Assembly: GCA_040756875.1 (NCBI GenBank)
Contig: JBFLYH010000002.1
Coordinates: forward strand, 606,526-670,525
Length of the DNA stretch: 64,000 bases
Source: a candidate division FCPU426 bacterium
GTDB taxonomy: Bacteria > Oederibacteriota > JAAXVQ01 > JAUVAV01
Reading direction: 5' to 3'
Part shown: one piece after another, positions 3,922 to 61,269 of the stretch
Layout: each line of letters begins with the position of its first letter
Position numbering within the stretch: position 1 is the stretch's first letter
Made by a program: the position numbers and the translations under genes
Notes under the pieces: model-generated
Database searches by the model: none
What the model saw: the letters and a program-made list of their open reading frames with translations, nothing else
What the model was told of the DNA's origin: nothing

Positions 3922-4738
3922 GATTGCTTCCTCCTTGGGAATTTTGCGGCTGCCCGGGGCCGAGGAACATGCGGATGCCTTCCTCCACTTGGCCCAGATC
4001 TACCGCCGTATTTTTGCAAGGGCCTTCGGGCCGGAGGTTGGCGTAACCCAACACCGGCACGCGGCCCCTTAAATCCTTGATGCCCACCAGCAGATCGCGC
4101 TCGCAGGCCACGGCAATGATGCCCTGCGGACGGTACTGGGCAATGCCCCGCCGGGCTTCGGTGCCGCCGAAGGCGATCACCTGCGAAAAGCCGTAGCGCT
4201 GTTTGAGCTGTTGCAGCCCCTGCATGGTTTCGCGACCCAGGCACCGCGGCGCCAACAGCAGCAGCTTGGCCGGGTCCGCAATCAGCGGCGGCAGCACTTC
4301 CAGGCGGTTGTAGGCCCGCACAAAAGCATGCCCGACCCGGTCCCGGGAAACGCCGAGCAGCCGGCCGAAGGCGACGCACAGCCCCACGACCCAGCGCGGG
4401 CCGCCCAGCCATTGGACGACATAACGCATGGGCCGCACGCCTGCCACAGCCAGGGCCATGGCCCCGAACCAGAGCAGCAGGTATCCGCCGCCGGCCGCGC
4501 CCGCCAAACCCGCCAGCCAGCCAAAACCGAACGTATGCAAACGCGGCAAGGCAAGCCATAGCAGGAGCCATAAAACCGCCCCCAAGAGCGCGACGGCCAG
4601 GCCGGCCAAGCCCATGAACACCCAGACCGAGGTCCGGGTATCCCCGTGGTCGCGGGAACCGTCCCAATCGCTCCATTCCTCGCCCAGTTTTCGGTCCTGC
4701 GTGCTGCGGGGTTCAGGCGCTGGGGTTTCAAACGGCAC
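3905..4738 (-). CDS. DUF116 family membrane protein
   Basis: Two N-terminal TM segments, then LLLAPRCL...GGTEAR...IIAVACERDL...PEGPCKNT, typical of DUF116. Confidence 0.85.
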   Translation of the reverse strand: MPFETPAPEPRSTQDRKLGEEWSDWDGSRDHGDTRTSVWVFMGLAGLAVALLGAVLWLLLWLALPRLHTFGFGWLAGLAGAAGGGYLLLWFGAMALAVAGVRPMRYVVQWLGGPRWVVGLCVAFGRLLGVSRDRVGHAFVRAYNRLEVLPPLIADPAKLLLLAPRCLGRETMQGLQQLKQRYGFSQVIAFGGTEARRGIAQYRPQGIIAVACERDLLVGIKDLRGRVPVLGYANLRPEGPCKNTAVDLGQVEEGIRMFLGPGQPQNSQGGSNHVGKN

Positions 4739-4771
4739 GAGCGGCTCCTTCGAGCGGGCAATCAGGCCAGC

Positions 4772-4800
4772 AGTATAAACAGCGGGTTGGGATCAGTCAA
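4772..4800 (-). promoter_or_regulatory. Probable sigma-70 promoter of the DUF116-ferredoxin-phosphoesterase operon
   Basis: Minus strand TTGACT, 17 nt, TATACT. Confidence 0.6.
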
Positions 4801-4817
4801 GGTGAAAGGGAGGAGGG

Positions 4818-4962
4818 AGCGAAGGGAGTCGCAGGTTTTTCATCCCGCGAGGCCTTTTCCGGCCTCGTGGGCGGCTTCATCCGCTGCGCGGAAAATCAGC
4901 CGCCCACTTTTTAATCCGAGGTAGGCTGTTCGCGGATTGAAAAACCTGCGACTCCCTTCGCT
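4818..4962. mobile_element. 145-bp MITE-like element with perfect 25-bp terminal inverted repeats
   Basis: AGCGAAGGGAGTCGCAGGTTTTTCA (4818-4842) is the exact reverse complement of 4938-4962. Internal hairpins CGAGGCC..GGCCTCG and GTGGGCGGCT..AGCCGCCCAC. No ORF. Confidence 0.7.
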
Positions 4963-5013
4963 ATCAAGAAGAAAGAATTGAAACAATAACAAAACGTCGA
5001 AATTCTTGGTTGT

Positions 5014-5778
5014 TTACCGCACGATCGCCACTTTTTTCCTCTGGTCCAGCAGGACCCGGCCATTGGCGTCTGTGATCTTGATCCGGCACAGGTAAATCCC
5101 CGGCGCCACGCCGGCTGCTTCCCACGCGGTGGTCAGGGTTTGGCCGCTGTTGTTCTTTCCTTCCTCAATCCGCGCCACCCGCTCGCCGGTCAGGTGATAG
5201 ATATCAATCTCGATCCTGCTCGCGCCCGGCACCGTGTATGCAAACACCACCCGGTCCCTCGCAGGGTTGGGATAGGCCAGGACCCTGCCTGCTGACACCC
5301 AGGGCGTGCCCGTGGGGGTCATGGTCAAGGTGGCGCTGTGGGTCGGCTGTAGGGTCGTCGTAATGCTGGGCGTGGGCGTGACGGTGGGTGAAGCGGTCCG
5401 GGTGTGGCTCGGCGTGGCTGTGGGCGTGGGCGAATCCGTCGGTGTATCGGTCGAAGTCTGCGTTTCCGTGGCAGTCAAGGTGATGGTGGACGTCATGGTT
5501 TCAGTCGGCGTCGGAGTCTCGGTCGGGCTGATGGTCACGGTCTCGGTAATCGTGGGCGTGGGGCTGATAGTCGCGGTTTCGGTGATTGTGGGCGAGAGGG
5601 TGGAGGTCGGGGAAATGGTGGATGTTGGCGTGATGCTGGGGGTGCAGGTAATGGTCGGCGAGGAAGCAATGCCAATGCCGATCTGCCAGACAGCCGAAAT
5701 CGTCGCGGCACTGGCAACACGAATGGCGGCGGTGCTCAGCGCCAAGCCGATCATACTCAACACCCATACCTTGCGCAT
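5014..5778 (-). CDS. Secreted protein: signal peptide, short pilin-like strand, Thr/Pro stalk, T9SS type-A-like C-terminal sorting domain
   Basis: Signal peptide ending ASA; about 120 aa of TPT/T-x repeats; C-terminal AYPNP...IDIYHLTGERV...W...APGIYL...KKVAIVR. Confidence 0.85.
   Translation of the reverse strand: MRKVWVLSMIGLALSTAAIRVASAATISAVWQIGIGIASSPTITCTPSITPTSTISPTSTLSPTITETATISPTPTITETVTISPTETPTPTETMTSTITLTATETQTSTDTPTDSPTPTATPSHTRTASPTVTPTPSITTTLQPTHSATLTMTPTGTPWVSAGRVLAYPNPARDRVVFAYTVPGASRIEIDIYHLTGERVARIEEGKNNSGQTLTTAWEAAGVAPGIYLCRIKITDANGRVLLDQRKKVAIVR
5302..5661 (-). repeat. Low-complexity Thr/Pro repeat (TPTxTx) coding region
   Basis: Translation SPTITCTPSITPTSTISPTSTLSPTITETATISPTPTITETVTISPTETPTPTET...; boundaries approximate. 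Confidence 0.85.
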
Positions 5779-5804
5779 GCCTGTTGTACCTCGCGAACGC
5801 GTTA

Positions 5805-6461
5805 TCAGTGAACCTGGGCGCCAATGACGACATTAAAAAACTGTTCGTCGCTGCTGGAAACTATGGTCGGCGTCAACACCATGAAGCGCAGACTGCGTTC
5901 CGTCATCCCCGGAACCGGCTGCACATTGTAACCTTTAACGTTTTCAGGGTCGTCCGGATCAACATTGCTGTTGTCCCTGGCCAACACATCCGTGCCGGCC
6001 ACCAGGGGCATGCCGCTTAATACGTCATTGTCGCCGAAATCAGCTAGCACTAAATCCCTCGAATACCCGCCCGTAAAATCACTGGCCGTATCCAGTGGTT
6101 TGGTGAATATCGCCGCGATCACGCAGGTATCATAGCCCGCGGAACCCAGGGTCGGACCCAATATCCAGGCCGGCCCGCCTGCACTCGTAATCGTGGCCGA
6201 TACCGTGTAATCAACAACCGCATACCCATGGTTCGAAATCGTGCAGCGCGGCAATCCCTGCGGCTGATTTGAAAATACCGCACTACCCGGCGCCACCCAG
6301 CCAAAGTGCATGGAATTTGTTATCGCCACCAGATCAATCTCGCCATAGGCAACCGCAATTCCGATTGGCCAGGCAACCGATATTACGGGCGCGGCCGCCG
6401 CCATTGCGCCCATTCCCAGACTAGCCGCAAGAATCAACGAACACATTAAAGTTTTTTTCAT
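5805..6461 (-). CDS. Secreted beta-rich protein, putative fibre/pilin subunit A
   Basis: Signal peptide; HFGWVAPG...CTISNHGYAVVDYTVSA...LRFMVLTP...EQFFNVVIGA; strong GGGGG RBS; paralog of the next gene. Confidence 0.8.
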   Translation of the reverse strand: MKKTLMCSLILAASLGMGAMAAAAPVISVAWPIGIAVAYGEIDLVAITNSMHFGWVAPGSAVFSNQPQGLPRCTISNHGYAVVDYTVSATITSAGGPAWILGPTLGSAGYDTCVIAAIFTKPLDTASDFTGGYSRDLVLADFGDNDVLSGMPLVAGTDVLARDNSNVDPDDPENVKGYNVQPVPGMTERSLRFMVLTPTIVSSSDEQFFNVVIGAQVH

Positions 6462-6485
6462 CTCTGCACCCCCCCTTGAAGTCAG

Positions 6486-7133
6486 TTAACGCACCACCGC
6501 TCCGATGGTGACCGTGAATACTTGCTCTGGTTCAAACACCACCCCTGCCGGCGTCCGCACCAGAAACCTGAGGCTGCGCGTGCTGTCCAGCGGACTGACG
6601 GCAAAACCCTTGAGAATATCCGGGTCGTCCGGATCAGGCCGGGTGTTGTTCCGGGCCAGCACGGTATCCGTGGCCACTTTCGGCGCAGGGCCAACCACAT
6701 CCTCATTTCCAAAATCCGCCGTTTCCAGATCCCTGCCCCAGGGAAAGGGGATTTGCGATTCCAGGATCGGCGCAGTAAAAATGGCGGCAATCACGCATTG
6801 ATCCGGTCCGATATCCTCCAGGTGCGTGCCCAGGGTCCAGCCCGTGACCGCGGCGCTGACCGTGTAATCCACCGTGGCATAGCCGTTGTTTTGGATCGTG
6901 CAGCGGGGATTGCCTTCGATTTGGTTGGATAGGACCGCGCTTTCGGGCGCCACATAACCAAAATGCAGGTAATCCGGAACAATGGCCGAGAGATCAATGT
7001 CGCCGGCATCCAATGTGATCACGATGGGGTAATCCGGTTCGCCGCCCTCGGCAGCCCAACTCCAGGCGGCCAAGGCCAGACAGGCCAGACCGAGGCAGCA
7101 AAACCACGAGTTTCTTCTGCTTGAGTTTTTCAT
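6486..7133 (-). CDS. Secreted beta-rich protein, putative fibre/pilin subunit B (paralog of 5805-6461)
   Basis: Signal peptide ending SWA; shares HFGxVAP, PRCTIxNxGYAxVDYTVSA, CVIAAIFT, DPDDP, RSLRF and EQxFxVxIGA with its neighbour. Start could also be 7163. Confidence 0.8.
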   Translation of the reverse strand: MKNSSRRNSWFCCLGLACLALAAWSWAAEGGEPDYPIVITLDAGDIDLSAIVPDYLHFGYVAPESAVLSNQIEGNPRCTIQNNGYATVDYTVSAAVTGWTLGTHLEDIGPDQCVIAAIFTAPILESQIPFPWGRDLETADFGNEDVVGPAPKVATDTVLARNNTRPDPDDPDILKGFAVSPLDSTRSLRFLVRTPAGVVFEPEQVFTVTIGAVVR

Positions 7134-7250
7134 CCGTCTTGTCCGTTTGCTGGAGTCTGGCATCCTGAGGACTCTTGCTTTATAGATGATACGGAGGTGA
7201 GATTTATTTCGTTTTTTTAGCGGCAGGAGATTTTTTTAACAAACGGGGAT

Positions 7251-7892
7251 TTAACCGGTCAGCCCTCTGAATCCCTGGATAAAGAACCACGTTCCCGCCA
7301 ATCCTGCGGCCAGGCGGCCGATGACGCGGATGGCGGAAGAGCGGCTGAACCAGCCGATGAAAGGCAGCGGCAGGAGGATAAGGGAGGTGCCGACGAAAAA
7401 GGAGGTGAGGATCAGGAACCCGGCCCAGGGGCCGCCGCTGAGGCCGGCTTCGGCCAGGGCGGCCAGGAACGGCGGACAGATATTCAGGCCGGTCAGCAAG
7501 CCCAGCAGGAACGGGGTCTGCTTTTCCCAGTGCGCCGAATGAAGAACCCGGCACCAGGACCAGTGCGGAAAGCTGGCGAGCAGCGCATAGGCCAGCAACA
7601 ACAGGCCTGTGGCCAGGAACACTCCTCCTTGCAGCCAGCGGACCGAGGCCGCTGCCAGAAACACCTGCTGCCCCAGCCAGCCGGCGATCAGTCCCACGGC
7701 TGCGTAACCTAAAAAGCGGCCGGCGAGAAACCACAGGAAAGCGAGCAGGTTCTCCCTGCCTTCGCGCGCTTCGGCGCCGAAATACGGCGCGAGCAGGGGC
7801 AGGCACACGCCCAGGCAGGTGGGCGAAAGGGCCACGCCGAGCAGAAAGCCTTGAACCATCAAAACCGAGCCTGTCAATTCCATAAAACCCAC
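7251..7892 (-). CDS. DsbD_2 / TauE-like multi-TM membrane protein
   Basis: About 6 TM helices; CLGVCLP, GRFLGY, GLLTGLNICPP and FFVGT motifs of the DsbD_2 (cytochrome c biogenesis-like) family. Confidence 0.75.
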   Translation of the reverse strand: MGFMELTGSVLMVQGFLLGVALSPTCLGVCLPLLAPYFGAEAREGRENLLAFLWFLAGRFLGYAAVGLIAGWLGQQVFLAAASVRWLQGGVFLATGLLLLAYALLASFPHWSWCRVLHSAHWEKQTPFLLGLLTGLNICPPFLAALAEAGLSGGPWAGFLILTSFFVGTSLILLPLPFIGWFSRSSAIRVIGRLAAGLAGTWFFIQGFRGLTG

Positions 7893-7970: not shown

Positions 7971-8855
7971 TTATTTCTCTCTGGCGCTCATTTTTTCTTT
8001 TTTGGATTGGTACATTTTCCGGTCGGCTTCGCGCAAGGTTTCGGTGGCGTCGCCGCAAGGATTGCAGGTCGCGTGCCCGATGCTGAGCGACAAGGTGAAA
8101 TCCACGCCTTCAGGCGGGTGTTGATTCCATTCCTCGACGGCGCTTTTCAGGCGGTCGATTTGCTTGGTCACGCCGTCTTCATCTGATTTGATCATGACGA
8201 CCAGGAATTCGTCGCCGCCCATGCGGAAAACCCAGTCCGTTTTCCGGCAGGATTGCGTGATCAAGCGGGCGGCGGCGCTTATGATTTTGTCCCCGGTCAA
8301 ATGGCCCAGGCGGTCGTTGACGTCCTTGAGGTGGTCCAGATCGATCACCAGAAAAGCCAGGGACTCGTTGCGGCGCTCGGCGCGCGCGATCTCCTGCGGG
8401 ATGACCTCGTTGTAAAAATGCCGGTTGTACAGGCCGGTCAGCGGATCGCGGATGGCCATTTCGCGCAATTTCCTGGCCTTCTCGTTCAGGTGGAAAATGA
8501 CGGTGTTGATGTTTTCCCACAGTTCCCGCAGCGGGTCCCGGGTGGCCTGCTTGAACACCGGGCAGGAAAAGCAACTGCGGTACTTTTCGACAAAACTCCC
8601 GCTGGGTTTATCCTCGCACAGCGTGCCTGCGCTCAGCCAGCAGCGATGTCCCCGGTCGCCATGCATCGGGCAATCGGTCTTGGAGCAATCCATTATTTCC
8701 CAGCACGGCAGGGGCGTAAAAGCCTTTTCAACCTGGCTCCAGGCCTGTTCCTGGGACAGGGTTTCTATCGAATCCCGGAGGTATTTTTCCAGATCCCGGT
8801 TGATAAGTTCAATCGCCTTCAGGAGGTCCTGGTTTTGCGGCTGGTTTTCATCCAT
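7971..8855 (-). CDS. Diguanylate cyclase (GGDEF) with an N-terminal Cys-rich two-CW domain
   Basis: DPLTGLYN, DLDHLKDVND..GH, I-site RKTD, RMGGDEF. N-terminal CWEIMDC..CP..CWLSAGTLC..CFSC. Start uncertain (8855 or 8882). Confidence 0.9.
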   Translation of the reverse strand: MDENQPQNQDLLKAIELINRDLEKYLRDSIETLSQEQAWSQVEKAFTPLPCWEIMDCSKTDCPMHGDRGHRCWLSAGTLCEDKPSGSFVEKYRSCFSCPVFKQATRDPLRELWENINTVIFHLNEKARKLREMAIRDPLTGLYNRHFYNEVIPQEIARAERRNESLAFLVIDLDHLKDVNDRLGHLTGDKIISAAARLITQSCRKTDWVFRMGGDEFLVVMIKSDEDGVTKQIDRLKSAVEEWNQHPPEGVDFTLSLSIGHATCNPCGDATETLREADRKMYQSKKEKMSAREK

Positions 8856-8978
8856 GTTCGTCCGACTCTTTCCGCCTGGCATGCACCGTGATGATCTTAT
8901 TAGCGACAGGGGCACGATGGCCCTGAGCCGGCGCAACAACCCCCCGCCGCCATGCTGTCGGGATACACTCCGGCCTGC

Positions 8979-9113
8979 TAGCAGGGTGCTGAAAACCCAC
9001 ATAGATTCCGCTAGCACCCTGCTACCCCATGAAAAATCTCTGATTTTTCATGGGGTTTTCAATGCAACGCAATCGAAAAAGACCGCTCTGCGGGCTTATT
9101 CATCAGCCTGCTA
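8979..9113. repeat. Palindromic REP/MITE-like element between the GGDEF and wHTH genes
   Basis: TAGCAGGGTGCTGAAAA (8979-8995) pairs imperfectly with TATTCATCAGCCTGCTA (9097-9113) and, over 12 bp, perfectly with AGCACCCTGCTA (9013-9024). Internal perfect 15-bp hairpin ACCCCATGAAAAATC-tct-GATTTTTCATGGGGT (9024-9056). Confidence 0.6.
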
Positions 9114-9591: not shown

Positions 9592-12471
9592 TTATGGCTG
9601 TTTTCGGCCCAGAAGCTTCGCCAGGTAGCGGCCGGTGTGCGAACGCGGCTCGCGGATGATTTCCTCCGGACGGCCGAACGCCACCACGCGCCCACCGGCT
9701 TCCCCGCCCTCGGGGCCGAGGTCCAACACATAATCCGCGGACTTGACCACGTCCAGGTTGTGCTCCACCACTACCACGGTATTGCCGCTTTCCACCAGGC
9801 GGCCGAGCACGTCCAGCAGCTTGTGCACGTCCGCGAAATGCAGGCCCGTGGTCGGCTCGTCCAGGATGTAGAGCGTGCGCCCCGTGGCCCGCTTGCCGAG
9901 CTCGGCCGACAGCTTGAGACGCTGGGCCTCGCCGCCGGAAAGCGTGGTGGCGGACTGCCCCAGTTTGATGTACCCCAGCCCCACGTCCGACACGGTCTGC
10001 AAAATACGCTTCAGACGCGGCACGGGCGCGAAAAATTCCAGCGCCTCGTCCACGATCAGGTCCAGCACCTCGGCGATGGTTTTGCCTTTATAGCGCACTT
10101 CCAGGGTCTCGCGGTTGTAGCGTTGGCCCCGGCAGACCTCGCACGGCACGTACACGTCGGACAGGAAGTGCATTTCGATCTTGATGATGCCGTCCCCGCC
10201 GCAGGCTTCGCAGCGCCCGCCTTTGACGTTGAACGAGAACCGGCCGGGCTTATAGCCCCGCACCTTGGCTTCGGGCGTCAGGGCGAACAGGTCGCGGATC
10301 TCGTTGAAGGCGCCGGTGTACGTGGCGGGGTTGGACCGGGGGGTGCGGCCGATGGGCGACTGGTCGATGTTGATGATCTTGTCCAGGTGCTCGGCGCCCC
10401 GCAGGTCGTCGTACCCGGCGGGCTTGACCCGGCCGCGGTACACGGCATGCCGCATGGCCGGCTCCAGGGTCTCCTGCACCAGCGAGCTTTTGCCCGAACC
10501 GGACACGCCGGTGACGCAGATGAACGTGCCCAGGGGCAGGCGCACGTCCACGTGCTTCAGGTTGTTGGTGACCGCGCCGGTCAGGACGAGCTCGGTCCCC
10601 AGGCCGCTGCGGCGCTGCGCCGGCACGGGCACGGCCTGTTTGCCGGTGAGGTACTGCCCGGTCAGGGATTTGGGGTCCTGCATCACGTCCTGCGGCGTGC
10701 CCTGGGCCACGATCTCCCCGCCCCACACGCCCGCGCCCGGGCCCATGTCGATCAGATGGTCGGCCTGGCGCATGGTTTCCTCGTCGTGTTCGACCACCAG
10801 CACGGTGTTGCCCAGGTCGCGCAGCCGCTTGAGGGTGTCGAGCAGGCGCTGGTTGTCGCGCTGGTGCAGGCCGACGGAGGGTTCGTCCAGGATGTACAGC
10901 ACGCCGACCAGCGAAGAGCCGATCTGCGTGGCCAGGTGGATGCGCTGGGCTTCCCCGCCGGACAGCGTGCCCGTGGCGCGGTTCAGCGCGAGGTAGTCCA
11001 GTCCCACGTTGGACAGGAAGCCCAGGCGTTCCGAGACTTCCTTGACCACCTGGCGGGCGATGGCCGCTTCCCGCTCCGTAAGGCGGAGTCCGCGAAAGAA
11101 GGCGATGGCCGCGTCCACGGTCAGCTCGGTCACTTCGATGATGTTTTTGCCTTCGATCCTGACCGCGAGGCTCTCCGGCCGCAGCCGCCGGCCGCCGCAG
11201 GCTGTGCAGGTCTGCACGCGCATGAAGCGGCTGGAAATTTCCTCCCGGATGTACTCCGAATCCGTTTCCTGATAGATGCGCTGGGTGCGCGGCAGCACGC
11301 CTTCGAAAGTGCCCACGTAATTGTAAGAGGATTCGGACCCGCGGAAGCGGAACGGCATGCGCTCCTCGCCCGAGCCGTGAAGAATGATTTTCCGGTGCTC
11401 GGGCTTGAGGCGTTTCCAGGGCATATCCAGCGAGAACCCGTAGTGTTTGGCCACGGACTGCAGCATGGCCCGGTAGATGTAGGCCGTGGGCGAATTCCAG
11501 GGCAGGATCGCGCCCTCGTTGAGCGTTTGGTTGGGGTCCACCGCCAGGTCCGGGTCCACTTCCATCTTCACGCCCAGGCCCGTGCACTCCGGGCATGCGC
11601 CCTGGGGCGAGTTGAAGGAAAACATGCGGGGCGTGAGCTCCTCGAAGGACAGCCCGCAATGCGCGCAGGCGTACTTTTCGGAGAACACCAGGGTGGCCTG
11701 GTCGCGGGCCGCGCGGCTGTGGCTCTTTTTTCCGCCTCCCGGCGCGGCGGCGTCCAGGCGGTGGACCAGCACCGTGCCCTCGCCGCGCTTGAGCGCGGTT
11801 TCCAGCGAATCAGCCAGCCTTCGCGCGATATCCTTGCCGATCACCAGGCGGTCCACCACCACTTCAATGTCGTGCTTGCGCTGCTTGTCCAGTTTGAAGT
11901 CCTCGTCCAGGTCCCGCACCTCGCCGTCCACGCGTACGCGCACGAACCCTTCGCGCTTGAGCAGGTCGAACAGTTTGCGGTACTCGCCTTTGCGGCTCAT
12001 GACCACCGGAGCCAGGACGAGAATCCGCTCCTGGGCCGGGAGCGCCAGCACCTGGTCCACGATTTCCTGGACGGTCTGCCGCTGGATGGGCCGGCCGCAC
12101 TGGGGGCAGTGGGGGCGGCCGATACGTGCGAAGAGCAGGCGCAGGTGGTCGTAGATTTCGGTCACGGTCCCGACCGTGGAGCGGGGATTCTTGGACCCGC
12201 TCTTTTGCTGGATGGCGATGGCTGGCGACAGGCCTTCAATGGCGTCCACGTCGGGCTTTTCCATTTGCCCCAGGAACTGGCGGGCGTAGGCTGAAAGCGA
12301 CTCGACGTAGCGACGCTGCCCTTCGGCGTAGATGGTGTCGAAGGCAAGCGAGGATTTGCCCGACCCCGACAACCCGGTGATGACCACCAGCCGGTTGCGC
12401 GGAATGGACAGGCTCAGGTTCTTGAGATTGTGCTCGCGGGCGCCGGTAATGAGGATTTGGTCAAGGGCCAT
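9592..12471 (-). CDS. uvrA: Excinuclease ABC subunit A
   Basis: GAREHNLKN, two Walker A motifs ([16 protein letters not shown]), LSGGEAQR twice, zinc fingers. Confidence 0.99.
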
Positions 12472-12573
12472 GGGAGTTCCTTTTTCAAATAATGAAGGAA
12501 AGGGGATAGCTTAGCACATCGCCAACTGGGCTTGTCAAGCGGACCCGGGCCAGACTATCAGGGATGCTGATTG

Positions 12574-12603
12574 TGTAGGGGCGTTCAATTGAACGCCCCT
12601 ACA
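12574..12603. repeat. GTAG-family REP palindrome
   Basis: TGTAGGGGCGTTCAATTGAACGCCCCTACA is a perfect 30-bp palindrome with GTAG ends. Confidence 0.85.
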
Positions 12604-53615: not shown

Positions 53616-54164
53616 TCAAATTTTTGCCAGCGTAATGCCCTTGCTTCCTTGGTACTTGCCTCCCTTGTCCGCATAAGAAACTTCAGGAACCCATTCGCTT
53701 TGCATGAACACCACCTGGGCGATGCCTTCCTGGGCGTAGATCTTGACGGGCGCTGCGGTGGTGTTAAATATCTGCATGGTCACATGCCCCTCCCATTCCG
53801 GCTCCAACGGCGTGATATTCACCAACACGCCGCTGCGCGCATACGTGGACTTGCCCGTGCACAAGGCGATCACATCTCTGGGGATGCGGAAATATTCCAC
53901 CGAACGTCCCAGGCAAAACGTGTGCGGAGGCAGCTCCAGCACCGGGCCTTGAAAATTTTCAAAATCTTCGGACCGGGATTGTTTGGGATCCGCCACATTG
54001 TTGGTTGACCCTTTGTGGATTTTGAACTGATCACTCACCCGCATGTCGTATCCAAAGGAAGAAATGCCAAAGGAGACCACGCCACCCGAAGTCGGCTCGG
54101 CGCAAGGTTCAATCATCCCTTTCTCCTTTGACAACTTCCTTATCATATGGTCCGGCATGACCAT
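53616..54164 (-). CDS. dcd: dCTP deaminase
   Basis: MIEP, SFGISSFGYD, GKSTYARSG, TPLEPEWEG, SYADKGGKYQ. Confidence 0.96.
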   Translation of the reverse strand: MVMPDHMIRKLSKEKGMIEPCAEPTSGGVVSFGISSFGYDMRVSDQFKIHKGSTNNVADPKQSRSEDFENFQGPVLELPPHTFCLGRSVEYFRIPRDVIALCTGKSTYARSGVLVNITPLEPEWEGHVTMQIFNTTAAPVKIYAQEGIAQVVFMQSEWVPEVSYADKGGKYQGSKGITLAKI

Positions 54165-54197
54165 GGCCGCAATTCCTCCCGGATTCTGATTACTCGT

Positions 54198-55700
54198 TCA
54201 TGCGTTGGACTTGTATTTAAAATGCTTGTTTTTTTGAGCTAAAAGCCAAGCCAGAGTCAGCCTTATACCAACCCCTGTAGCCCCTTTGGGCGACAAAGGC
54301 GTTTTATCTCCATACGCTGTTCCTGCAATGTCCAAATGGACCCAGGGCGTATCCCCGATAAAACGTTCAAGAAAAACCGCGCCTTGAATCGTGCCTGCTC
54401 CGGACTTGCTTGAAATATTTGCAATATCAGCCACTTCGCTTTTCATTAACTGGCGGTATTCATCCCAGATCGGTAGCTGCCAGGTCTTCTCGCCAGACTC
54501 ATTTCCGGCCTCGGCAATATCCAATCCCATCTGGTCGCAATTCGTCAATAACCCGGTGGCATATGTCCCTAACGCTACGATAACCGCCCCTGTCAATGTT
54601 GCGAAATCCAGAATGCATGCCGGCTTATGCCTAAGACTATAAGTGAGGGCGTCCGCCAGTATCAATCTGCCTTCCGCATCAGTGTTGATGATCTCAATAC
54701 TCTTCCCGGATAAACTGGTCACAACATCTCCCGGCCTGGTAGCTGTCCCGGAAGGCATATTTTCGGCAGCCGGAACCACCCCTAGCAAATTAACCGGCAG
54801 CCTCATGGCTGCTGCAGCTTTGATGATACCCAAAACTGCGGCCGCGCCGCTCATGTCAAAACGCATCTCTTCCATTTTGGCAGATGGCTTGATCGAGATG
54901 CCCCCGGAATCGAAGGTGATGCCCTTCCCCACCAGCGCAACTGGCGCTTGTTTGCTGCTGGCCCCCTGATAACGGATGTCGATCAGCACCGGAGGGCGCA
55001 CGCTGCCAATGCCAACCGCCATTAAAGCGCCGAATCCCTGCCGTCGCAATTCCTGATGACGGAGAATTTTCACCTTGATTCGTTTGTCTTTTTTCGCCAA
55101 CGCCACAGCCTCTTTAGCCAATACTTCCGGATAAAGAACATTCCCGGGGCGGTTGGCCAACGTCCTGGCATAATTAACGCTGTCCGCCGTGTCCTCGGCC
55201 ATCTTCACTGCCTGGAGAATGGATGGCTTTTTTTCAATGCATAACGACACTGTGAACCGCTGCCTACGCAAATCCTCGTCCTGCTCTTTCTTCAGTTCCA
55301 AATATCGATAACTCGCCAGTTGTCCGGCCAGTACGATGAGCCGGCTGGTCTCCACCGGTTCCAAACGTTCATGGCAGAAACTGCCCACTTCAAAGACCGC
55401 TTCCCGGACTTTTAAGCGCACGGCTCTTTGCACCGCCAACCCCACCGCTTTACGCACTTCCTCGGCTTCCAATTCGGCGCCTTTTCCCAAGCCGCAAAGA
55501 ATTACCCTTTCAATGGGTCCGGATGGGGGGTAAAAAACGTTTATTTCCCCCAGTTTTCCGGTTACATCACCTAGTTTAATGGCGCGTTGTATCCCGGGTA
55601 TCCGCGCAGTCAAGCCTGACAGGGATTTTTTGTCTTCCGTTACACCCAACACCAAATTTCTTATCCCCCGGATTTCCTTTGGGCGATAAAAACGGACCAT
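54198..55700 (-). CDS. pepA: Leucyl aminopeptidase (M17)
   Basis: VGKGITFDSGG, M.FDMSGAA, ENMPSG, NTDAEGRL, ATLTGA, HLDIAG. Confidence 0.97.
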   Translation of the reverse strand: MVRFYRPKEIRGIRNLVLGVTEDKKSLSGLTARIPGIQRAIKLGDVTGKLGEINVFYPPSGPIERVILCGLGKGAELEAEEVRKAVGLAVQRAVRLKVREAVFEVGSFCHERLEPVETSRLIVLAGQLASYRYLELKKEQDEDLRRQRFTVSLCIEKKPSILQAVKMAEDTADSVNYARTLANRPGNVLYPEVLAKEAVALAKKDKRIKVKILRHQELRRQGFGALMAVGIGSVRPPVLIDIRYQGASSKQAPVALVGKGITFDSGGISIKPSAKMEEMRFDMSGAAAVLGIIKAAAAMRLPVNLLGVVPAAENMPSGTATRPGDVVTSLSGKSIEIINTDAEGRLILADALTYSLRHKPACILDFATLTGAVIVALGTYATGLLTNCDQMGLDIAEAGNESGEKTWQLPIWDEYRQLMKSEVADIANISSKSGAGTIQGAVFLERFIGDTPWVHLDIAGTAYGDKTPLSPKGATGVGIRLTLAWLLAQKNKHFKYKSNA

Positions 55701-56185
55701 AACGAATTCCTCCTTCGACGAAACCGCGTTAATGATTCACAGTGTACGACGAGAAAAATACGAGGGCAAGGAATAAAAATCGTCAGCAAAAGCGACTGCG
55801 GGTGTAAATTTCATTCTTAACATTTAAGCAACGTATTGCACCCTCTTGTGCTATTCCCCGGGAATGAACCCGCGCCGATTTTTAAAAGGCAAGTTTATAT
55901 GAAGTCGTCTCGCAAACAAACAAGGCGTGGCCGAACAGCCTCCGCAGTGACAATTTATGTTTAATACTATAATTTGAAAGGGTGGTTTTATGACTTCGTC
56001 TCGTCAATATTCATAATATCAGTTAAATAATAACTATAATAATAAACAATATTATATCATTGTTACATTTGTGTATATTTATATTTAAAGTGTTATATAT
56101 ACATTAAACTCGGCGATGCGATCGGGTTTCGGCAGGCGGGAATCCAATTCGTTTTTAACTTTCTCTTAAAGAATATTGCACACCT

Positions 56186-57022
56186 TCAGTTTTCTTTTGG
56201 TTGCGGCACCATCCAATCCCCCAACGCTTGATTGATATCCGCAAATTCCTGCAAGGACAATGTCTCCGGCCGGCGTTGCGAATCGATGCCTGCCCGGGCT
56301 AAAGCGCTTTCCCAATATTCCTGTCGCGGTGCACGCTCCAAACCCTGCAGGCATTTTCGCAAAGTCTTGCGCCGATGGGTGAAGGCCGACCGGACAAGGT
56401 ACAAGAACATCTCTTCATCACTGACATGCACCTGAGGAGCCTCTCTCTTGTCCAATCGAATGATCGCAGATGAAACCAGCGGCGGAGGGTTGAATGCCTT
56501 GGCCGGCACCCGGCATACATAATGCGGTTCGCTATAATATCGCGCCGCGACACTCAGCGCGGAATAGTCCTTGCTCCCTGGTTCGCTGCATAGGCGTCTT
56601 CCCACTTCATCCTGGACCATTACCACCAAACGGTCGCAACGCGCTTTGCTGGCAAGTACGTGCATAACCATTTGGGTGGCCATGTAATATGGAAGGTTGG
56701 CGACAAGCTTAATTCGTTTGAATCCCTTTTCGCGCAATTCACCAATCACTTCATCCCAGCTGATATACCGGGCATCAAGATTACGGACTTCGAAATTGTT
56801 GTGGTTTTCGAATTTTTCTTTCAATTTATCGATAAATCGGGAATCAATCTCTAATGCCAGCACCAAACCGGCCTTGGGCAATAAGTATTTGGTTAAAACA
56901 CCCTTACCAGGCCCGACTTCAATGACCGCGTCTTCCGGCGAAAGCTCGGCTGCTTCCACTGCCTTCATGGCGTAATGGATATGTTTAAGAAAATGTTGGC
57001 CATATTTGGGTTTTTTTAGCAT
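56186..57022 (-). CDS. rsmA: 16S rRNA m6,2A dimethyltransferase
   Basis: GQHFL, EVGPGKG.LT, VANLPY, MVQDEV, F.PPP.V.S, RRKTL, RRPETL. Confidence 0.96.
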   Translation of the reverse strand: MLKKPKYGQHFLKHIHYAMKAVEAAELSPEDAVIEVGPGKGVLTKYLLPKAGLVLALEIDSRFIDKLKEKFENHNNFEVRNLDARYISWDEVIGELREKGFKRIKLVANLPYYMATQMVMHVLASKARCDRLVVMVQDEVGRRLCSEPGSKDYSALSVAARYYSEPHYVCRVPAKAFNPPPLVSSAIIRLDKREAPQVHVSDEEMFLYLVRSAFTHRRKTLRKCLQGLERAPRQEYWESALARAGIDSQRRPETLSLQEFADINQALGDWMVPQPKEN

Positions 57023-58044
57023 CGGGAATTAATGACCATTTCTCTGGCAGTCAGGATCGCCTGGCGCATGGAATGAGGATCCGCTACATTTTTACCTGCA
57101 ATTGAAAATGCCGTGCCATGATCCGGCGAAGTCCGGATTATTGGCAAACCTGCTGTAATATTCACGCCATTGTTAAAATGCCTCATTTTAAAAGGTATTA
57201 ATCCCTGATCATGATACATACATACGAATAAGTCGAAAGCTTCAGTGTATTTATCAGTAAATAACGTATCGGCTGGAAAAGGCCCTTTAATATTAATCCC
57301 TTTCTTCTTCAGTTTACTAATGGCTGGTTTTATTATTGTTATTTCCTCTTTTCCAAAAATCCCATTTTCTCCTGCGTGTGGATTTAAACCAGCACAGGCG
57401 ATTCTGGGTCTAGAGATGTTGAAATATTTTTTTAAAGTTTCATTTCCTGTAATACAAGTCTCTATAACCTTTTGAACATTTATTATAGAATGAACTCTGG
57501 ATAAAGGTTCATGAATAGTCACAAGTATTACTCGAAATACACCTCCAATAAACATCATGGAATATCTTTTTGTTTTAGTCATTTTCGCGAGCAGTTCAGT
57601 GTGTCCAGGGAAAAATATCTTTGCTTCATGCCAAGCTTCTTTAGATATAGGTGCTGTTACCATGGCATCAACACTTTTATCCATACAAAGCTGAATACCC
57701 CTGGTCACTGCTTTATATGACATAAATCCGCTAGCTTTATTACCCCTGCCAATTTCAATCATACCATTCGAGATATCACTATTAATAAATAATATTCTTC
57801 CTTTTAGTGCATAATGCTGATTTGATACCGTGTTGTCATCAACTACGATTATTTTTTTAATTGTTTTTACAAAGTGTTTCATCCTTTTAAACACATTGAA
57901 ATCGCCTATAATTAAAGGACAAATCTTTGAGGTAATTGTTTTATCATTTAAACACTTTAAAATAATCTCTGGACCTATGCCTGCAGGATCGCCCATCGTA
58001 ATAGCAATTCTAGGAATAAACTTGTTTTTTAATCGGATTAGCAT
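57016..58044 (-). CDS. pdxA: 4-hydroxythreonine-4-phosphate dehydrogenase
   Basis: TMGDPAGIGPE, TAPISK, GHTE, GLNPHAGE, PADT, MYHDQGL, RTSPDHGTAF; start uncertain. Confidence 0.95.
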   Translation of the reverse strand: MLIRLKNKFIPRIAITMGDPAGIGPEIILKCLNDKTITSKICPLIIGDFNVFKRMKHFVKTIKKIIVVDDNTVSNQHYALKGRILFINSDISNGMIEIGRGNKASGFMSYKAVTRGIQLCMDKSVDAMVTAPISKEAWHEAKIFFPGHTELLAKMTKTKRYSMMFIGGVFRVILVTIHEPLSRVHSIINVQKVIETCITGNETLKKYFNISRPRIACAGLNPHAGENGIFGKEEITIIKPAISKLKKKGINIKGPFPADTLFTDKYTEAFDLFVCMYHDQGLIPFKMRHFNNGVNITAGLPIIRTSPDHGTAFSIAGKNVADPHSMRQAILTAREMVINSRC

Positions 58045-58869
58045 AGCAATATACACATCCTTCCGGACAATGCTGCTGATACGACCCGATATCAATTGAT
58101 TTGCTACAATTACACTCTTTTCTTTGTCCTCTATCCTTGTCACAACTTATTGAATTTTGTAAAGGATGAATTATTGATATAAATTCACTATTTACACATT
58201 TTGCCGGCGTTACTCCAAAAGGAGTAAATACCGGCGATGAACAGGCATTCAGCCTCATATTATAATCATTTGCTACTTCCAGCAATTGATTAATATCTCT
58301 TTTAATCTCTTCTGAATTCGGCTCTGCTATATTAATTGAATAATGCTCTGCTCTGGCTTTTGATTTCGCATACCATTGACATAAAGAGATGATTACATTT
58401 TGGATGCCAGCATCAGCGATTATTGGAGCTATTTTTTTGAAAATACTTATATTGCTTGCTTTTTTCCCCCCGTCCATCCAATAAACAATAGGATCGAATC
58501 GCCATACCACTCTCTCGCAGCTTCCGGCGATATCTACCAGGTGTTTCCCTTGTAAAGCTGTTTTATTATAAGGTAGTATACCCGGTTCCAGCGAAGTGCC
58601 GCCTAATCCTGTTATCGTGAAATGAAAAAAAGCTGTTGGTACCTTTTCAATCGGTCCAAAAGCTTGCATTCGTTGGCAAGCAACCTTGAAAAATCCTTGG
58701 ACCATAAAACTATTGTGTGAACATCGCTCGGGTCGAGGGAAACATGCCTGACTTGGCCTGAGAAGGGGTTTTTTACTTCAACCCATTTTTGTTCCAGCCA
58801 CCCTGAAAATACGGAAGGAAACATTCTCGCCAAATCGGTCCGGCGGGAAGCCGAGATAATTTCCGCCAT
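58010..58869 (-). pseudogene. DUF1848 family gene split by a frameshift (pseudogene, recoding or sequence error)
   Basis: N-part 58612-58869 (IISASRRTD, NPF, WSKD) and C-part 58010-58705 (FTIT, WRFDPI, CV, DRGQRKECNC..SIDIGSY..C..GCVYCYAN) join across the A7 run at 58625-58631. Confidence 0.85.
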
Positions 58870-58872
58870 GGC

Positions 58873-59844
58873 TCACTGGGCCAATTGGTTTGAGAGGTGG
58901 TAGTATTCCCGGCCAAGATGCTTCTGCCTGGCCGTTACGATCGCCAGGGGCGAAGCAACGATATGATCGTTTTGGAGCCCTGATAAATGGGCGTACAGAC
59001 CTTTCGCCAGGTTCTGGACAGCGGCATGTCCCATGCGTGCCGCTAGCAGGCGGCTGCGGGCCGAGGGGCTGCCGCCGCGCTGAATATATCCCAGGATCGA
59101 AAGCCGGACACGCAAGCCGGTTTTGGCCTTCAATTGCTCCGTGATTTTTTTTGAGTCGCCGGCCCCCTCGGCCATCACGATGATCGAAGATAGCTTGCCG
59201 CGCTTCTTGCCGTTGACCAGCATCCGGCTGATTGCATCCAACTGGTATTTGATTTCCGGAACCAGCACAGCCTCCGCCCCGCACGCCAGCCCGACTTCCA
59301 CGGCGATGAATCCGTTGTGACGGCCCATGACTTCAATGAGAAACACCCGTTCGTGGGAGGTGGCGGTGTCGCGGATCTGGTCGATGGCGGTGACGGCCGT
59401 GTTCACGGCCGTATCGAATCCCACCGTGTCGTCCGTTCCGTAGACGTCGTTATCGATGGACGCCGGCACCACGGCCACTGGCAACTGGATTTCACGGTGG
59501 ATCGCCTGTGCGGCTGCGGCGCTGCCATTGCCGCCGATCACCACCAACCCTTCCAGACCTAGCTCGCGGATATGCCGATAGGCTTTTGCCCTTTGGGAGG
59601 CTTGCTTGAATTCGGGACAACGGACAGTCCGCAGAATAGTGCCGCCACGGTTGATGATTCCGCCGACACTGCGCGAATCCATGGGCTGTGTTTCCCGATT
59701 GATCAAACCCCAATAGCCGCGTAATATCCCGGTCACCCTCCACTTGCGGTCCGTTGCGGCGCGTACAACGGCCCGGATGGCGGCATTCATCCCGGGCGCA
59801 TCTCCCCCGGAAGTCAATACCCCTATATGCTTTATCTTGATCAC
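58873..59844 (-). CDS. pfkA: ATP-dependent 6-phosphofructokinase
   Basis: LTSGGDAPGMNAA, GGTIL, IGGNGS, SIDND, EVMGR, LGYIQRGG. Confidence 0.97.
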   Translation of the reverse strand: MIKIKHIGVLTSGGDAPGMNAAIRAVVRAATDRKWRVTGILRGYWGLINRETQPMDSRSVGGIINRGGTILRTVRCPEFKQASQRAKAYRHIRELGLEGLVVIGGNGSAAAAQAIHREIQLPVAVVPASIDNDVYGTDDTVGFDTAVNTAVTAIDQIRDTATSHERVFLIEVMGRHNGFIAVEVGLACGAEAVLVPEIKYQLDAISRMLVNGKKRGKLSSIIVMAEGAGDSKKITEQLKAKTGLRVRLSILGYIQRGGSPSARSRLLAARMGHAAVQNLAKGLYAHLSGLQNDHIVASPLAIVTARQKHLGREYYHLSNQLAQ

Positions 59845-59859
59845 GCGTTTCCTCCGTCC

Positions 59860-61269
59860 TTACGGCTGTTCTTCAACGACTTTAAATTCCACGCGCCGGT
59901 TGCGTCTTCGTCCTTCGGCCGTGGCATTGTCGGCGATCGGCCTGCTTTCACCGTAACCGACGGGAATGAACTGCTCGGCCAGCAGCCTGTGGTGGTCGAC
60001 CAAATAGGCCTGGACAGCCTGCACCCGGCTTTGGGATAGGCGCAAATTGGTTTTCGCCGAGCCTTGCGCATCCGTATGTCCTTCGATGCGGATGCGCAGG
60101 TCTGGGAACGACGCCGCTTCTGCGGCTATTTCATCCAGTGTGCCCAGGGATTCCGGCGTCAATATCGTCGAACCGCTTTTAAACTGTATATTCACCAGTT
60201 GACCGAGCTCAATTCGCCGGCTGATGGCCTCTATGCGCTCCTCCAGCGCCTGACGCTGGGGTACTGGTGTCGGCACTGGCGTGGGAACCGCAGTCGGTTG
60301 CGCGGTGGGCGTCGGAGCCGGTGAAGCGGCCGCGAATTGATACGTCATGGAAATGCGGTGGGTCGTGCCAAAAAAGCCGTAAGGCACGAAAGCATAATCC
60401 AATCGAAACGGCGCATATCGCAAGCCCAGGCCCGCCGTGACGCCGGCGGCTGCTTGGCTCCCAAAATTGGCGTACAATTCGGATGGATCGATTTTTTCCT
60501 GATACATGTAACCCGCCCGCAAGGCCAGGGTTCCGGCGAACAAGTATTCGGCGCCCAAGGCGATCTTTCCAGGTTGCTCCAACAGCTGGTTGTAATCCAG
60601 GGTAAGGGCGACTTCTTTTAGGGGAAGGTAGGCTGCGCCCAGCTTGAAATTGATGGGAAGACGATAATATTCTTCCCGCAGACTGGTCGCTGGTCCCAGG
60701 TGCTGGACGACCCCTCCCAGGCGCAGTCCGGGCCAGGGCAGAAAGTAAAGGAAGCCAGCGTCCACGGCCCATCCGAGGTTGGCCTGGGCATCAATGGTTT
60801 CCGAAAACATCAATACATTTGCGCCCAAGTGCAGATGTTCCGAGAAGCGAAGCCCATACCCTGCCGTGAACCCAAAATCCGCGGCGGAAAAAGTCCCGCG
60901 GCCGGGATCATCTGGGGTGTCTCCGATGTCCGAACGCACCAAGTCGCCGGCGTTTAGATAAACCAGCGAGCCGCCGATCGTTCCATTCAGCCAGGGCAGT
61001 GCCAACGCGACGTGATCGAAAAAAATGTCCTCCAACCAAAAGACGTGCATAGCCGTGGCTTCGGGCGTCGTAATCTGGGCTAGTCCCGCAGGATTCCAAT
61101 AAAGGGCGGTTGCGTCGTCGGCTAAACCCGCGTACGCTTCGCCCATGGCCACGGCCCGCGGGCCGACGCTGATTTTCAAGAATGTGGCGGCAGTAGTTCC
61201 TTTTCCGGAAATAGCCAAGGCTGAAAGTGGAAGGCATCCCACGAGAACCGCGATGAAAATATTGCGCAT
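59860..61269 (-). CDS. PorV/PorQ-like outer-membrane beta-barrel fused by a Pro/Thr linker to an OmpA-like peptidoglycan-binding domain
   Basis: Signal peptide; TTAATFLKI..GPRAVAMGEA..ADDATALYWNPAGL; ..LDYAFVPYG.FG.THRIS; PTPTAQPTAVPTPVPTP; IEGHTD..N..LS..R..GYGESRPIADN..GRRRNRRVE. Confidence 0.88.
   Translation of the reverse strand: MRNIFIAVLVGCLPLSALAISGKGTTAATFLKISVGPRAVAMGEAYAGLADDATALYWNPAGLAQITTPEATAMHVFWLEDIFFDHVALALPWLNGTIGGSLVYLNAGDLVRSDIGDTPDDPGRGTFSAADFGFTAGYGLRFSEHLHLGANVLMFSETIDAQANLGWAVDAGFLYFLPWPGLRLGGVVQHLGPATSLREEYYRLPINFKLGAAYLPLKEVALTLDYNQLLEQPGKIALGAEYLFAGTLALRAGYMYQEKIDPSELYANFGSQAAAGVTAGLGLRYAPFRLDYAFVPYGFFGTTHRISMTYQFAAASPAPTPTAQPTAVPTPVPTPVPQRQALEERIEAISRRIELGQLVNIQFKSGSTILTPESLGTLDEIAAEAASFPDLRIRIEGHTDAQGSAKTNLRLSQSRVQAVQAYLVDHHRLLAEQFIPVGYGESRPIADNATAEGRRRNRRVEFKVVEEQP

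Follow-up and report, generated by a model that had tools for sequence, protein, structure and literature searches.

A group of three genes was examined in a 64,000-nt stretch of DNA from a candidate division FCPU426 bacterium (contig JBFLYH010000002.1, positions 606,526 to 670,525; hereafter the window, whose own numbering is used throughout) as a possible source of a surface structure held together by exchanged β-strands. The genes lie co-oriented and closely packed on the minus strand, with gaps of 24 and 26 nt between neighbors, in the order subunit A, subunit B and anchor. All three open reading frames (ORFs) named in a preliminary description of this DNA were present there. Subunit A (P0003, 215 amino acids; 6486..7133, with an alternative ATG start at 7163) was assigned a Sec-type signal peptide, a short N-terminal strand, termed s0, and a β-sandwich core from its ORF and translation, a structural model and a tree. 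Subunit B (P0002, 218 amino acids; 5805..6461) was assigned the same three parts from its ORF, BLASTP and a model. In subunit A, s0 covers Y35–D42 (YPIVITLD; 7008..7031, minus strand), as aligned with the s0 column block of the family; in subunit B it covers I27–A38 (ISVAWPIGIAVA; 6348..6383, minus strand), placed by translation, family alignment and a 12-mer scan. The third gene (P0001, 254 amino acids; 5014..5778) encodes the putative anchor. The signal peptides of all three proteins were read by eye from the sequence.

The anchor opens with a signal-peptide-like start, in which n-, h- and c-regions ending in ASA before A25 could be recognized by eye, and continues with the segment ATISAVWQIGIGIAS, a stalk of about 120 residues and a C-terminal domain (CTD). 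As had been proposed, no globular N-terminal domain is present, and the protein comprises only the signal peptide, a strand of 12–15 amino acids, a Thr/Pro stalk and a type-A CTD of the type IX secretion system (T9SS). Its copy of s0 (ISAVWQIGIGIA; 5665..5700, minus strand) is followed by the Thr/Pro-rich stalk (about residues 39–160; 5299..5664, minus strand), which was delimited from the translation and its composition; residues 41–100 are 72% Thr, Pro or Ser. The CTD (5017..5274, minus strand) occupies the last ~85 residues and passes the curated cut-offs of both PF18962 (30.7 bits against 27, residues 169–237 of 254, with the domain extending to the C terminus) and TIGR04183 (30 against 23). 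A Pfam scan at E 1e-5 or better was run on 51 window ORFs, 24 of which had no match and some of which are probably not genes. Within that set no usher, chaperone, sortase, SipW-type or other signal peptidase family was found, in keeping with the absence of usher and sortase proposed at the outset.

Subunits A and B share 52% identity over 189 amino acids (BLASTP, E 5e-56), and each of the sequence blocks from which their close paralogy had been deduced was found in the pair. A word-indexed search of 5.8 billion protein clusters returned 11 subunit proteins, the query included, and an exhaustive HMMER search of 1.84 billion representatives gave 38 subunit-family matches. One of the latter was a false positive (P0041, 1782 amino acids with 15 matched stretches), which is an ankyrin-repeat protein and was dropped. 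Only G79, F142 and R192 are invariant in the 44-member family. The two conserved cysteines of the preliminary description hold among 12 close relatives (C73 invariant, C113 in at least 90%) but not across all 44 members. No conserved Cys marks the end of the signal peptide in the 12-sequence alignment, so that the lipobox of type V pilins has no counterpart there, and none of the 44 single-domain members gave a meaningful match to any Pfam family. Feature matches of the subunit in the ESM Atlas were commonest in Elusimicrobiota. The tree contains an A-type clade (P0003, P0012, P0009 and P0011; support 98/90) and a B-type group (P0002, P0004, P0005 and P0007; support 82/89). Because each of these spans several lineages, the A/B duplication is older than the lineages, with both copies retained. 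Two further pairs of subunit paralogues were seen, P0008 and P0010 (adjacent locus tags K8S19_12660 and K8S19_12665) and P0006 and P0009, which share one 1779-nt contig; from these two pairs, subunit genes of the close subfamily seem generally to come in twos.

The strand s0 is characterized by a pattern of residues. Bulky hydrophobic residues occupy four alternating positions, all four in 40 of the 44 members and at least three in every member, and the in-between positions are bulky hydrophobic in 11% of cases. The four stand-alone anchors available (those of the window and of two related loci, L001 and L002, and the database protein P0048) are, when read by eye, hydrophobic at the same four positions. 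Judged from the alignment, such a pattern is typical of an amphipathic strand that buries one of its faces, as found in the N-terminal extensions of chaperone–usher pilins.

Between the anchor and subunit B the resemblance goes beyond pattern. The reported match of 7 of 15 residues between the anchor and PVISVAWPIGIAVAY of subunit B, at the same residue numbers (I27, S28, W31, I33, G34, I35 and A38), was reproduced, and within the 12-residue strand the two are 7/12 identical. Ungapped BLASTP alignment of the two N termini from residue 1 gave 14/38 identities, with an E value for the pair of 0.05. A 12-mer scan was then employed, in which s0 of subunit B was scored against the six-frame translations of the window, L001 and L002 (130,672 positions). 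Apart from the match to itself, the highest scores belonged to the subunit orthologue at L001 (46), the anchor of the window (39) and the anchor of L001 (33), with noise at or below 31. For L001, the cognate subunit and anchor strands are identical at 9/12 positions and rank first of all 130,672. At the level of sequence, the match between anchor and subunit B is greater than chance.

The order A, B, anchor recurs at both related loci that were obtained (3/3 with the window), and no chaperone or usher gene was seen at either when the listed ORFs were inspected by eye, supplemented by a Pfam scan of two L002 proteins only. The anchors of the window and L001 share the motif WQIGIGIA at 8/8 residues, with four of the eight codons differing synonymously and with unrelated signal peptides; the synonymous changes and diverged signal peptides indicate that the anchor strand is under purifying selection and is not a recent copy. 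The L002 anchor starts with a different segment, VYFNLRMHLL, which recurs in P0048 (QFNLRMHLL). These two N termini were misplaced in a MAFFT alignment of the four anchors and were read by eye. The expectation that the anchor strand should resemble that of the neighboring subunit in homologous loci was thus borne out in the window (7/12) and at L001 (9/12), whereas at L002 the likeness is one of pattern only. Scored with PF18962, for which the cut-off is 27, the L001 anchor (28.3) and P0048 (28.8) lie above and the L002 anchor (23.0) lies below. At L002 the operon is flanked by two large proteins (4567–7062 and 9593–12583), an FG-GAP protein and an unannotated protein of 996 amino acids, both ending in a Thr/Pro stalk and CTD. 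Both carry a repeated module of ~150 amino acids of no assigned family, which starts with a conserved, GAQPANW-containing segment and also occurs in P0050 and P0053. Given these flanking proteins, stalk plus CTD looks like a general surface-display module in this lineage.

A natural fusion of the same parts was found in P0014 (753 amino acids, from an NCBI source, on a contig of 4500 nt). It contains three subunit domains (residues 40–162, 213–335 and 381–505), followed by a Thr/Pro stalk and a CTD that scores 25.0 bits with PF18962, below the cut-off of 27. The family s0 aligns to both inter-domain linkers, and domain 3 is separated from the stalk by a third s0-like strand. In the mature protein, domain 1 has no s0 and begins directly with the next strand, so that three domains and three strands are present but shifted by one. 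This register fits what would be expected if each strand completes the domain preceding it, and the same shifted layout of domains and strands is used in engineered self-complemented pilins. The last strand and stalk of P0014 have the layout of the stand-alone anchor. A MAFFT alignment of P0014 with the family and the anchors was left unused, as it stacked every core on domain 3 and dispersed the termini.

For the fold of the subunits, AlphaFold2 models were compared with known structures. The model of subunit A, built on a 44-sequence alignment, had a predicted local distance difference test score (pLDDT) of 88.0 and a predicted template modeling (TM) score of 0.78; that of subunit B, built on 12 sequences, reached a pLDDT of 67.5, with the s0 region (residues 17–42) below 50. 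The fold search with the subunit A model was headed by the TasA fiber chain 8aur_A (E 2.9e-4, probability 1.00), followed by TLP-1b (5.5e-4) and CfaB (8.4e-4), these being the three matches with E ≤ 0.001. All of its best 10 rows are chains of filament subunits that assemble by donor-strand exchange (DSE), namely TasA, TLP-1a/b, CfaB, CS17 and CS20. The subunit B model gave the same top match (8aur_A, E 1.8e-3, probability 1.00). Normalized by query, the TM score to 8aur_A was 0.42 for subunit B and 0.35 for subunit A, and among ESM Atlas structure rows the Peptidase_M73/camelysin clusters gave 0.47–0.49 and DUF1102 gave 0.47. The models point to a weak, fold-class resemblance to donor-strand filament subunits and not to membership of any known family. 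The comparison with TasA and pilins suggested in the preliminary description finds support in so far as DSE subunits rank first for both models, but the TM scores of these fold searches stay at or below 0.43 and profile searches of Protein Data Bank (PDB) sequences were empty.

Our favored interpretation, which we regard as about evenly balanced between right and wrong, is that the operon specifies a surface structure whose subunits are complemented by strands and whose anchor has no domain, s0 acting in trans. We infer strand insertion in trans, the choice of receiving subunit, the polymer length and the use of the T9SS. Subunits A and B would be joined head to tail, each s0 completing the fold of the neighboring subunit, and the groove left open on the subunit nearest the cell would be filled by the s0 of the anchor. 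The chain would end at the anchor, which has no groove to accept a further strand, and the stalk and CTD of the anchor would bring the assembly to the cell surface and hold it there. P0014 would be the same device as a single polypeptide; the product of the operon could be either a long fiber or a short complex of 1:1:1 type equivalent to P0014.

An alternative is that s0 works in cis, as the first edge strand of its own β-sandwich. The operon would then encode three independent secreted or surface proteins, the anchor strand would be a relic of the 5′ end of a subunit gene, and P0014 would be beads on a string. Some features of the subunits are compatible with this. In the alignment s0 and the next strand are only 2–4 residues apart, with Gly or Asp-Pro often among these, which is short enough for a hairpin to be possible, and in the monomer model of subunit A from the deep alignment s0 has a pLDDT of 82–92, possibly a sign that it packs against the domain to which it belongs. 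The weak fold matches fit this reading too. Proteins made of stalk and CTD can also stand alone, since in P0086, P0090 and P0099 (Candidatus Goldiibacteriota) the signal peptide is followed only by a Thr/Glu-rich stalk and a CTD, with neither strand nor domain; such proteins may act as bare "hairs" on the surface or may anchor some other structure. Against a role in cis, DSSP assigned s0 as coil with no strand pairing in both monomer models, and in the shallow subunit B model its pLDDT was below 50. P0014 lacks s0 where such a role would place it, before domain 1, and has an extra one after domain 3. The anchor strand has been kept 8/8 across lineages through synonymous changes while the signal peptides diverged fully, and the order of the operon is preserved in 3/3 loci. 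We consider the cis arrangement unlikely, though a serious contender; most likely, the s0 of each subunit does not serve its own domain.

Complex prediction was also attempted, using residues 29–215 of subunit A, 24–218 of subunit B and 25–58 of the anchor as partner. Scores of 0.79, 0.78 and 0.76 were obtained. In the controls, replacing the partner gave 0.00 and 0.01, but keeping the partner and replacing chain 2 gave 0.89, so that the mark was missed; the prediction gives no verdict either way and was counted neither as support nor as counter-evidence for strand insertion.

It is very unlikely that the shared segment is a sorting or processing signal recognized by a common export, processing or modification factor. 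In subunit B and the anchor the segment has the same residue numbers and follows immediately on the predicted cleavage site, which would suit such a signal, and TasA and TapA do share a dedicated signal peptidase. P0014, however, carries its segments internally, between domains and before the stalk, where an N-terminal signal could not act. What is conserved over 44 members is an alternating hydrophobic pattern and not a fixed motif, and no peptidase family lies next to the operon among the 51 ORFs scanned. Chance resemblance between hydrophobic sequences close to signal peptides is extremely unlikely: the pairwise BLASTP E value is only 0.05, the family s0 profile does not find the anchors and at L002 the subunit strands fail to pick out their anchor, but the window anchor is the second-best non-self match of 130,672 positions, the L001 pair ranks first, anchors from different lineages retain the strand and the fusion P0014 exists.

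Several results weigh against strand complementation in trans. The fold matches of the subunit A model have TM scores by query of 0.26–0.36 with root-mean-square deviations of 11–14 Å (best 10 rows), and in the fold searches with both subunit models no TM score exceeds 0.43. None of the 44 members matched Peptidase_M73, even at E up to 1, or any pilin family of Pfam, and family profile searches of PDB sequences returned nothing relevant and no TasA chain. The high pLDDT of s0 in the subunit A monomer belongs here as well. A profile hidden Markov model of the family s0 (a 14-residue block) had no anchor among its best 25 matches; this profile was too weak, its own training sequences scoring only 4–13 bits, and it was replaced by the 12-mer scan. 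In that scan, the s0 12-mers of the L002 subunits gave no match to the L002 anchor that scored 20 or more, the two having only the hydrophobic pattern in common. The anchor search was dominated by CTD and Thr/Pro matches. Among the 119 matches listed, P0048 was the only further strand-bearing anchor, and the L001 anchor was not among the 120 matches listed. The search for fusions yielded P0014 itself as the 1 match among 8000 scored candidates, and the reading of its domain 1 hinges on a cleavage site placed by eye, MAFFT having aligned SFSIAI of the signal peptide to s0. No T9SS component turned up in the Pfam scan of 51 window ORFs, 24 of which had no match; the window covers 64 kb of a contig of 1,134,623 nt. 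Finally, subunits that carry no CTD have no evident route across an outer membrane. The proposal of a fibre formed by donor-strand complementation and tethered by the anchor is retained in part: the fold class, the conserved gene order, the tracking of the strand in 2/3 loci and the register of P0014 speak for it, and the weakness of the fold matches and the L002 strand speak against it.

The question of export can be answered in a bolder form, which we think distinctly unlikely to hold as a whole. The host looks diderm, since an OmpA-family protein is encoded in the window at 59860–61269. The operon could represent a new class of pilus or other appendage in diderm candidate phyla, in which untagged DSE subunits are built in the periplasm on a donor-strand-only, CTD-bearing terminator, are exported piggyback through the T9SS by this CTD in trans and are fixed by CTD attachment, with the T9SS doing the work of an usher, a sortase or a cell-wall anchor.

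Chaperone–usher pili, type V pili, TasA and archaeal filaments all employ donor-strand exchange, each with its own solution to anchoring and export. By analogy, the nearest precedent for the three-gene system would be TasA/TapA of Bacillus subtilis. As described in the consulted parts of PMC10151520 and PMC9674648, TasA is a β-sandwich that polymerizes by inserting its N-terminal strand into the next protomer, and its minor partner TapA donates a subunit-like strand, accepts none and so sits at one end. The same parts of PMC10151520 state that TapA gives TasA its N-terminal strand and is confined to one filament end, and that a strain secreting only TapA residues 44–57 still formed a proper biofilm. 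The systems differ in that no sequence relationship exists and the TM scores are only 0.35–0.42. The anchor described here has no folded domain and ends in a T9SS CTD, whereas on the TapA side there is a cell-wall-associated immunoglobulin (Ig) domain. The host here looks diderm and has two retained subunit paralogues, and no SipW-type peptidase is found among the 51 window ORFs.

Chaperone–usher pili (CfaB, CS17 and CS20; Fim, Pap and Csu) have incomplete Ig-like subunits that are completed by an alternating-hydrophobic N-terminal extension, and it is this alternating pattern that s0 shares. Their tip subunit has no extension, like domain 1 of P0014, and a terminator at the base stops growth. 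Chaperone–usher pilins fill rows 3–7, 9 and 10 of the subunit A fold search, CfaB, CS17 and CS20 with TM scores by query of 0.26–0.32. Unlike these systems, the operon is not accompanied by chaperone or usher families, none having been found in the scan of 51 window ORFs; its terminator would be a bare strand on a stalk, and anchoring would be by a CTD and not by an usher. Rows two and eight of the same search are TLP-1, whose fibrils (TLP-1a/b), known by cryo-EM from pond water, assemble by DSE and consist, according to the consulted part of PMC11494351, of a protein of unassigned family that uncultured bacteria secrete. TLP-1 differs in giving no sequence match, in having its donor at n+4 and forming a tubule, and in having no known anchor.

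The type V pilins of Bacteroidota are lipoproteins that are matured by T9SS-secreted proteases and donate a C-terminal strand. The subunits described here differ in having ordinary signal peptides and an N-terminal strand, and their anchor would itself be T9SS cargo. The likeness would lie in strand exchange, in hosts that bear a T9SS and in a basal anchor that also terminates elongation (FimA/Mfa1 with the anchors FimB/Mfa2), as set out in the consulted part of PMC8512630. The anchor resembles type-A CTD cargo in passing the PF18962 and TIGR04183 cut-offs, and the large neighbors at L002 carry the same stalk and CTD. The usual cargo, though, has an enzyme or adhesin domain in cis, where the anchor has only a strand of 12–15 amino acids. 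Literature searches joining T9SS with donor strand or with TasA brought up no description of a CTD-bearing donor-strand anchor in titles and abstract openings. What looks new here is the subunit family together with the domain-less, CTD-bearing anchor; surface filaments linked by donor strands are already known.

Around the operon, the Pfam scan of the window identified DsbD_2, GGDEF, DUF116, ferredoxin and metallophosphoesterase proteins as neighbors, with otherwise housekeeping genes. Immediately upstream on the same strand lie a DsbD_2 membrane protein (7251–7892) and then a GGDEF diguanylate cyclase (7971–9017) with a Cys-rich N-terminal part. Neither is present at L001 or L002. A link of these neighbors to disulfide formation in the subunits, close relatives of which have two Cys, or to control by cyclic di-GMP is possible. 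A scan of 4700–7400 for promoters and terminators gave nothing exceeding shuffled expectation. Long ORFs also run opposite the stalk-coding regions (window 5045–5778; L001 8626–9396), for example at window 5306–5827 on the plus strand (173 amino acids, Val/Gly-rich); being by-products of the repetitive ACN/CCN codons, these are not genes. Elsewhere in the window, G+C drops to 0.41–0.51 at 54001–60000, compared with 0.58–0.69 in the remainder, and in a pdxA-like ORF at 57016–58143 the G+C at third positions is 0.30. Such a break in composition is odd because the genes in this stretch are housekeeping genes (Peptidase_M17, RrnaAD and PdxA).

A strand of 12–15 amino acids that captures a stable β-sandwich could serve as a simple handle for surface display. 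If strand complementation in trans is true, the operon would add another anchoring solution to those known for DSE, with the anchor cut down to a bare donor strand on a flexible stalk and given to the T9SS, and it would raise the question whether the T9SS carries passengers that are bound non-covalently. The split form in the operon and the fused form in P0014 would show how such systems evolve, and a function would be provided for an unannotated protein family in poorly known phyla, FCPU426 and apparently Elusimicrobiota.

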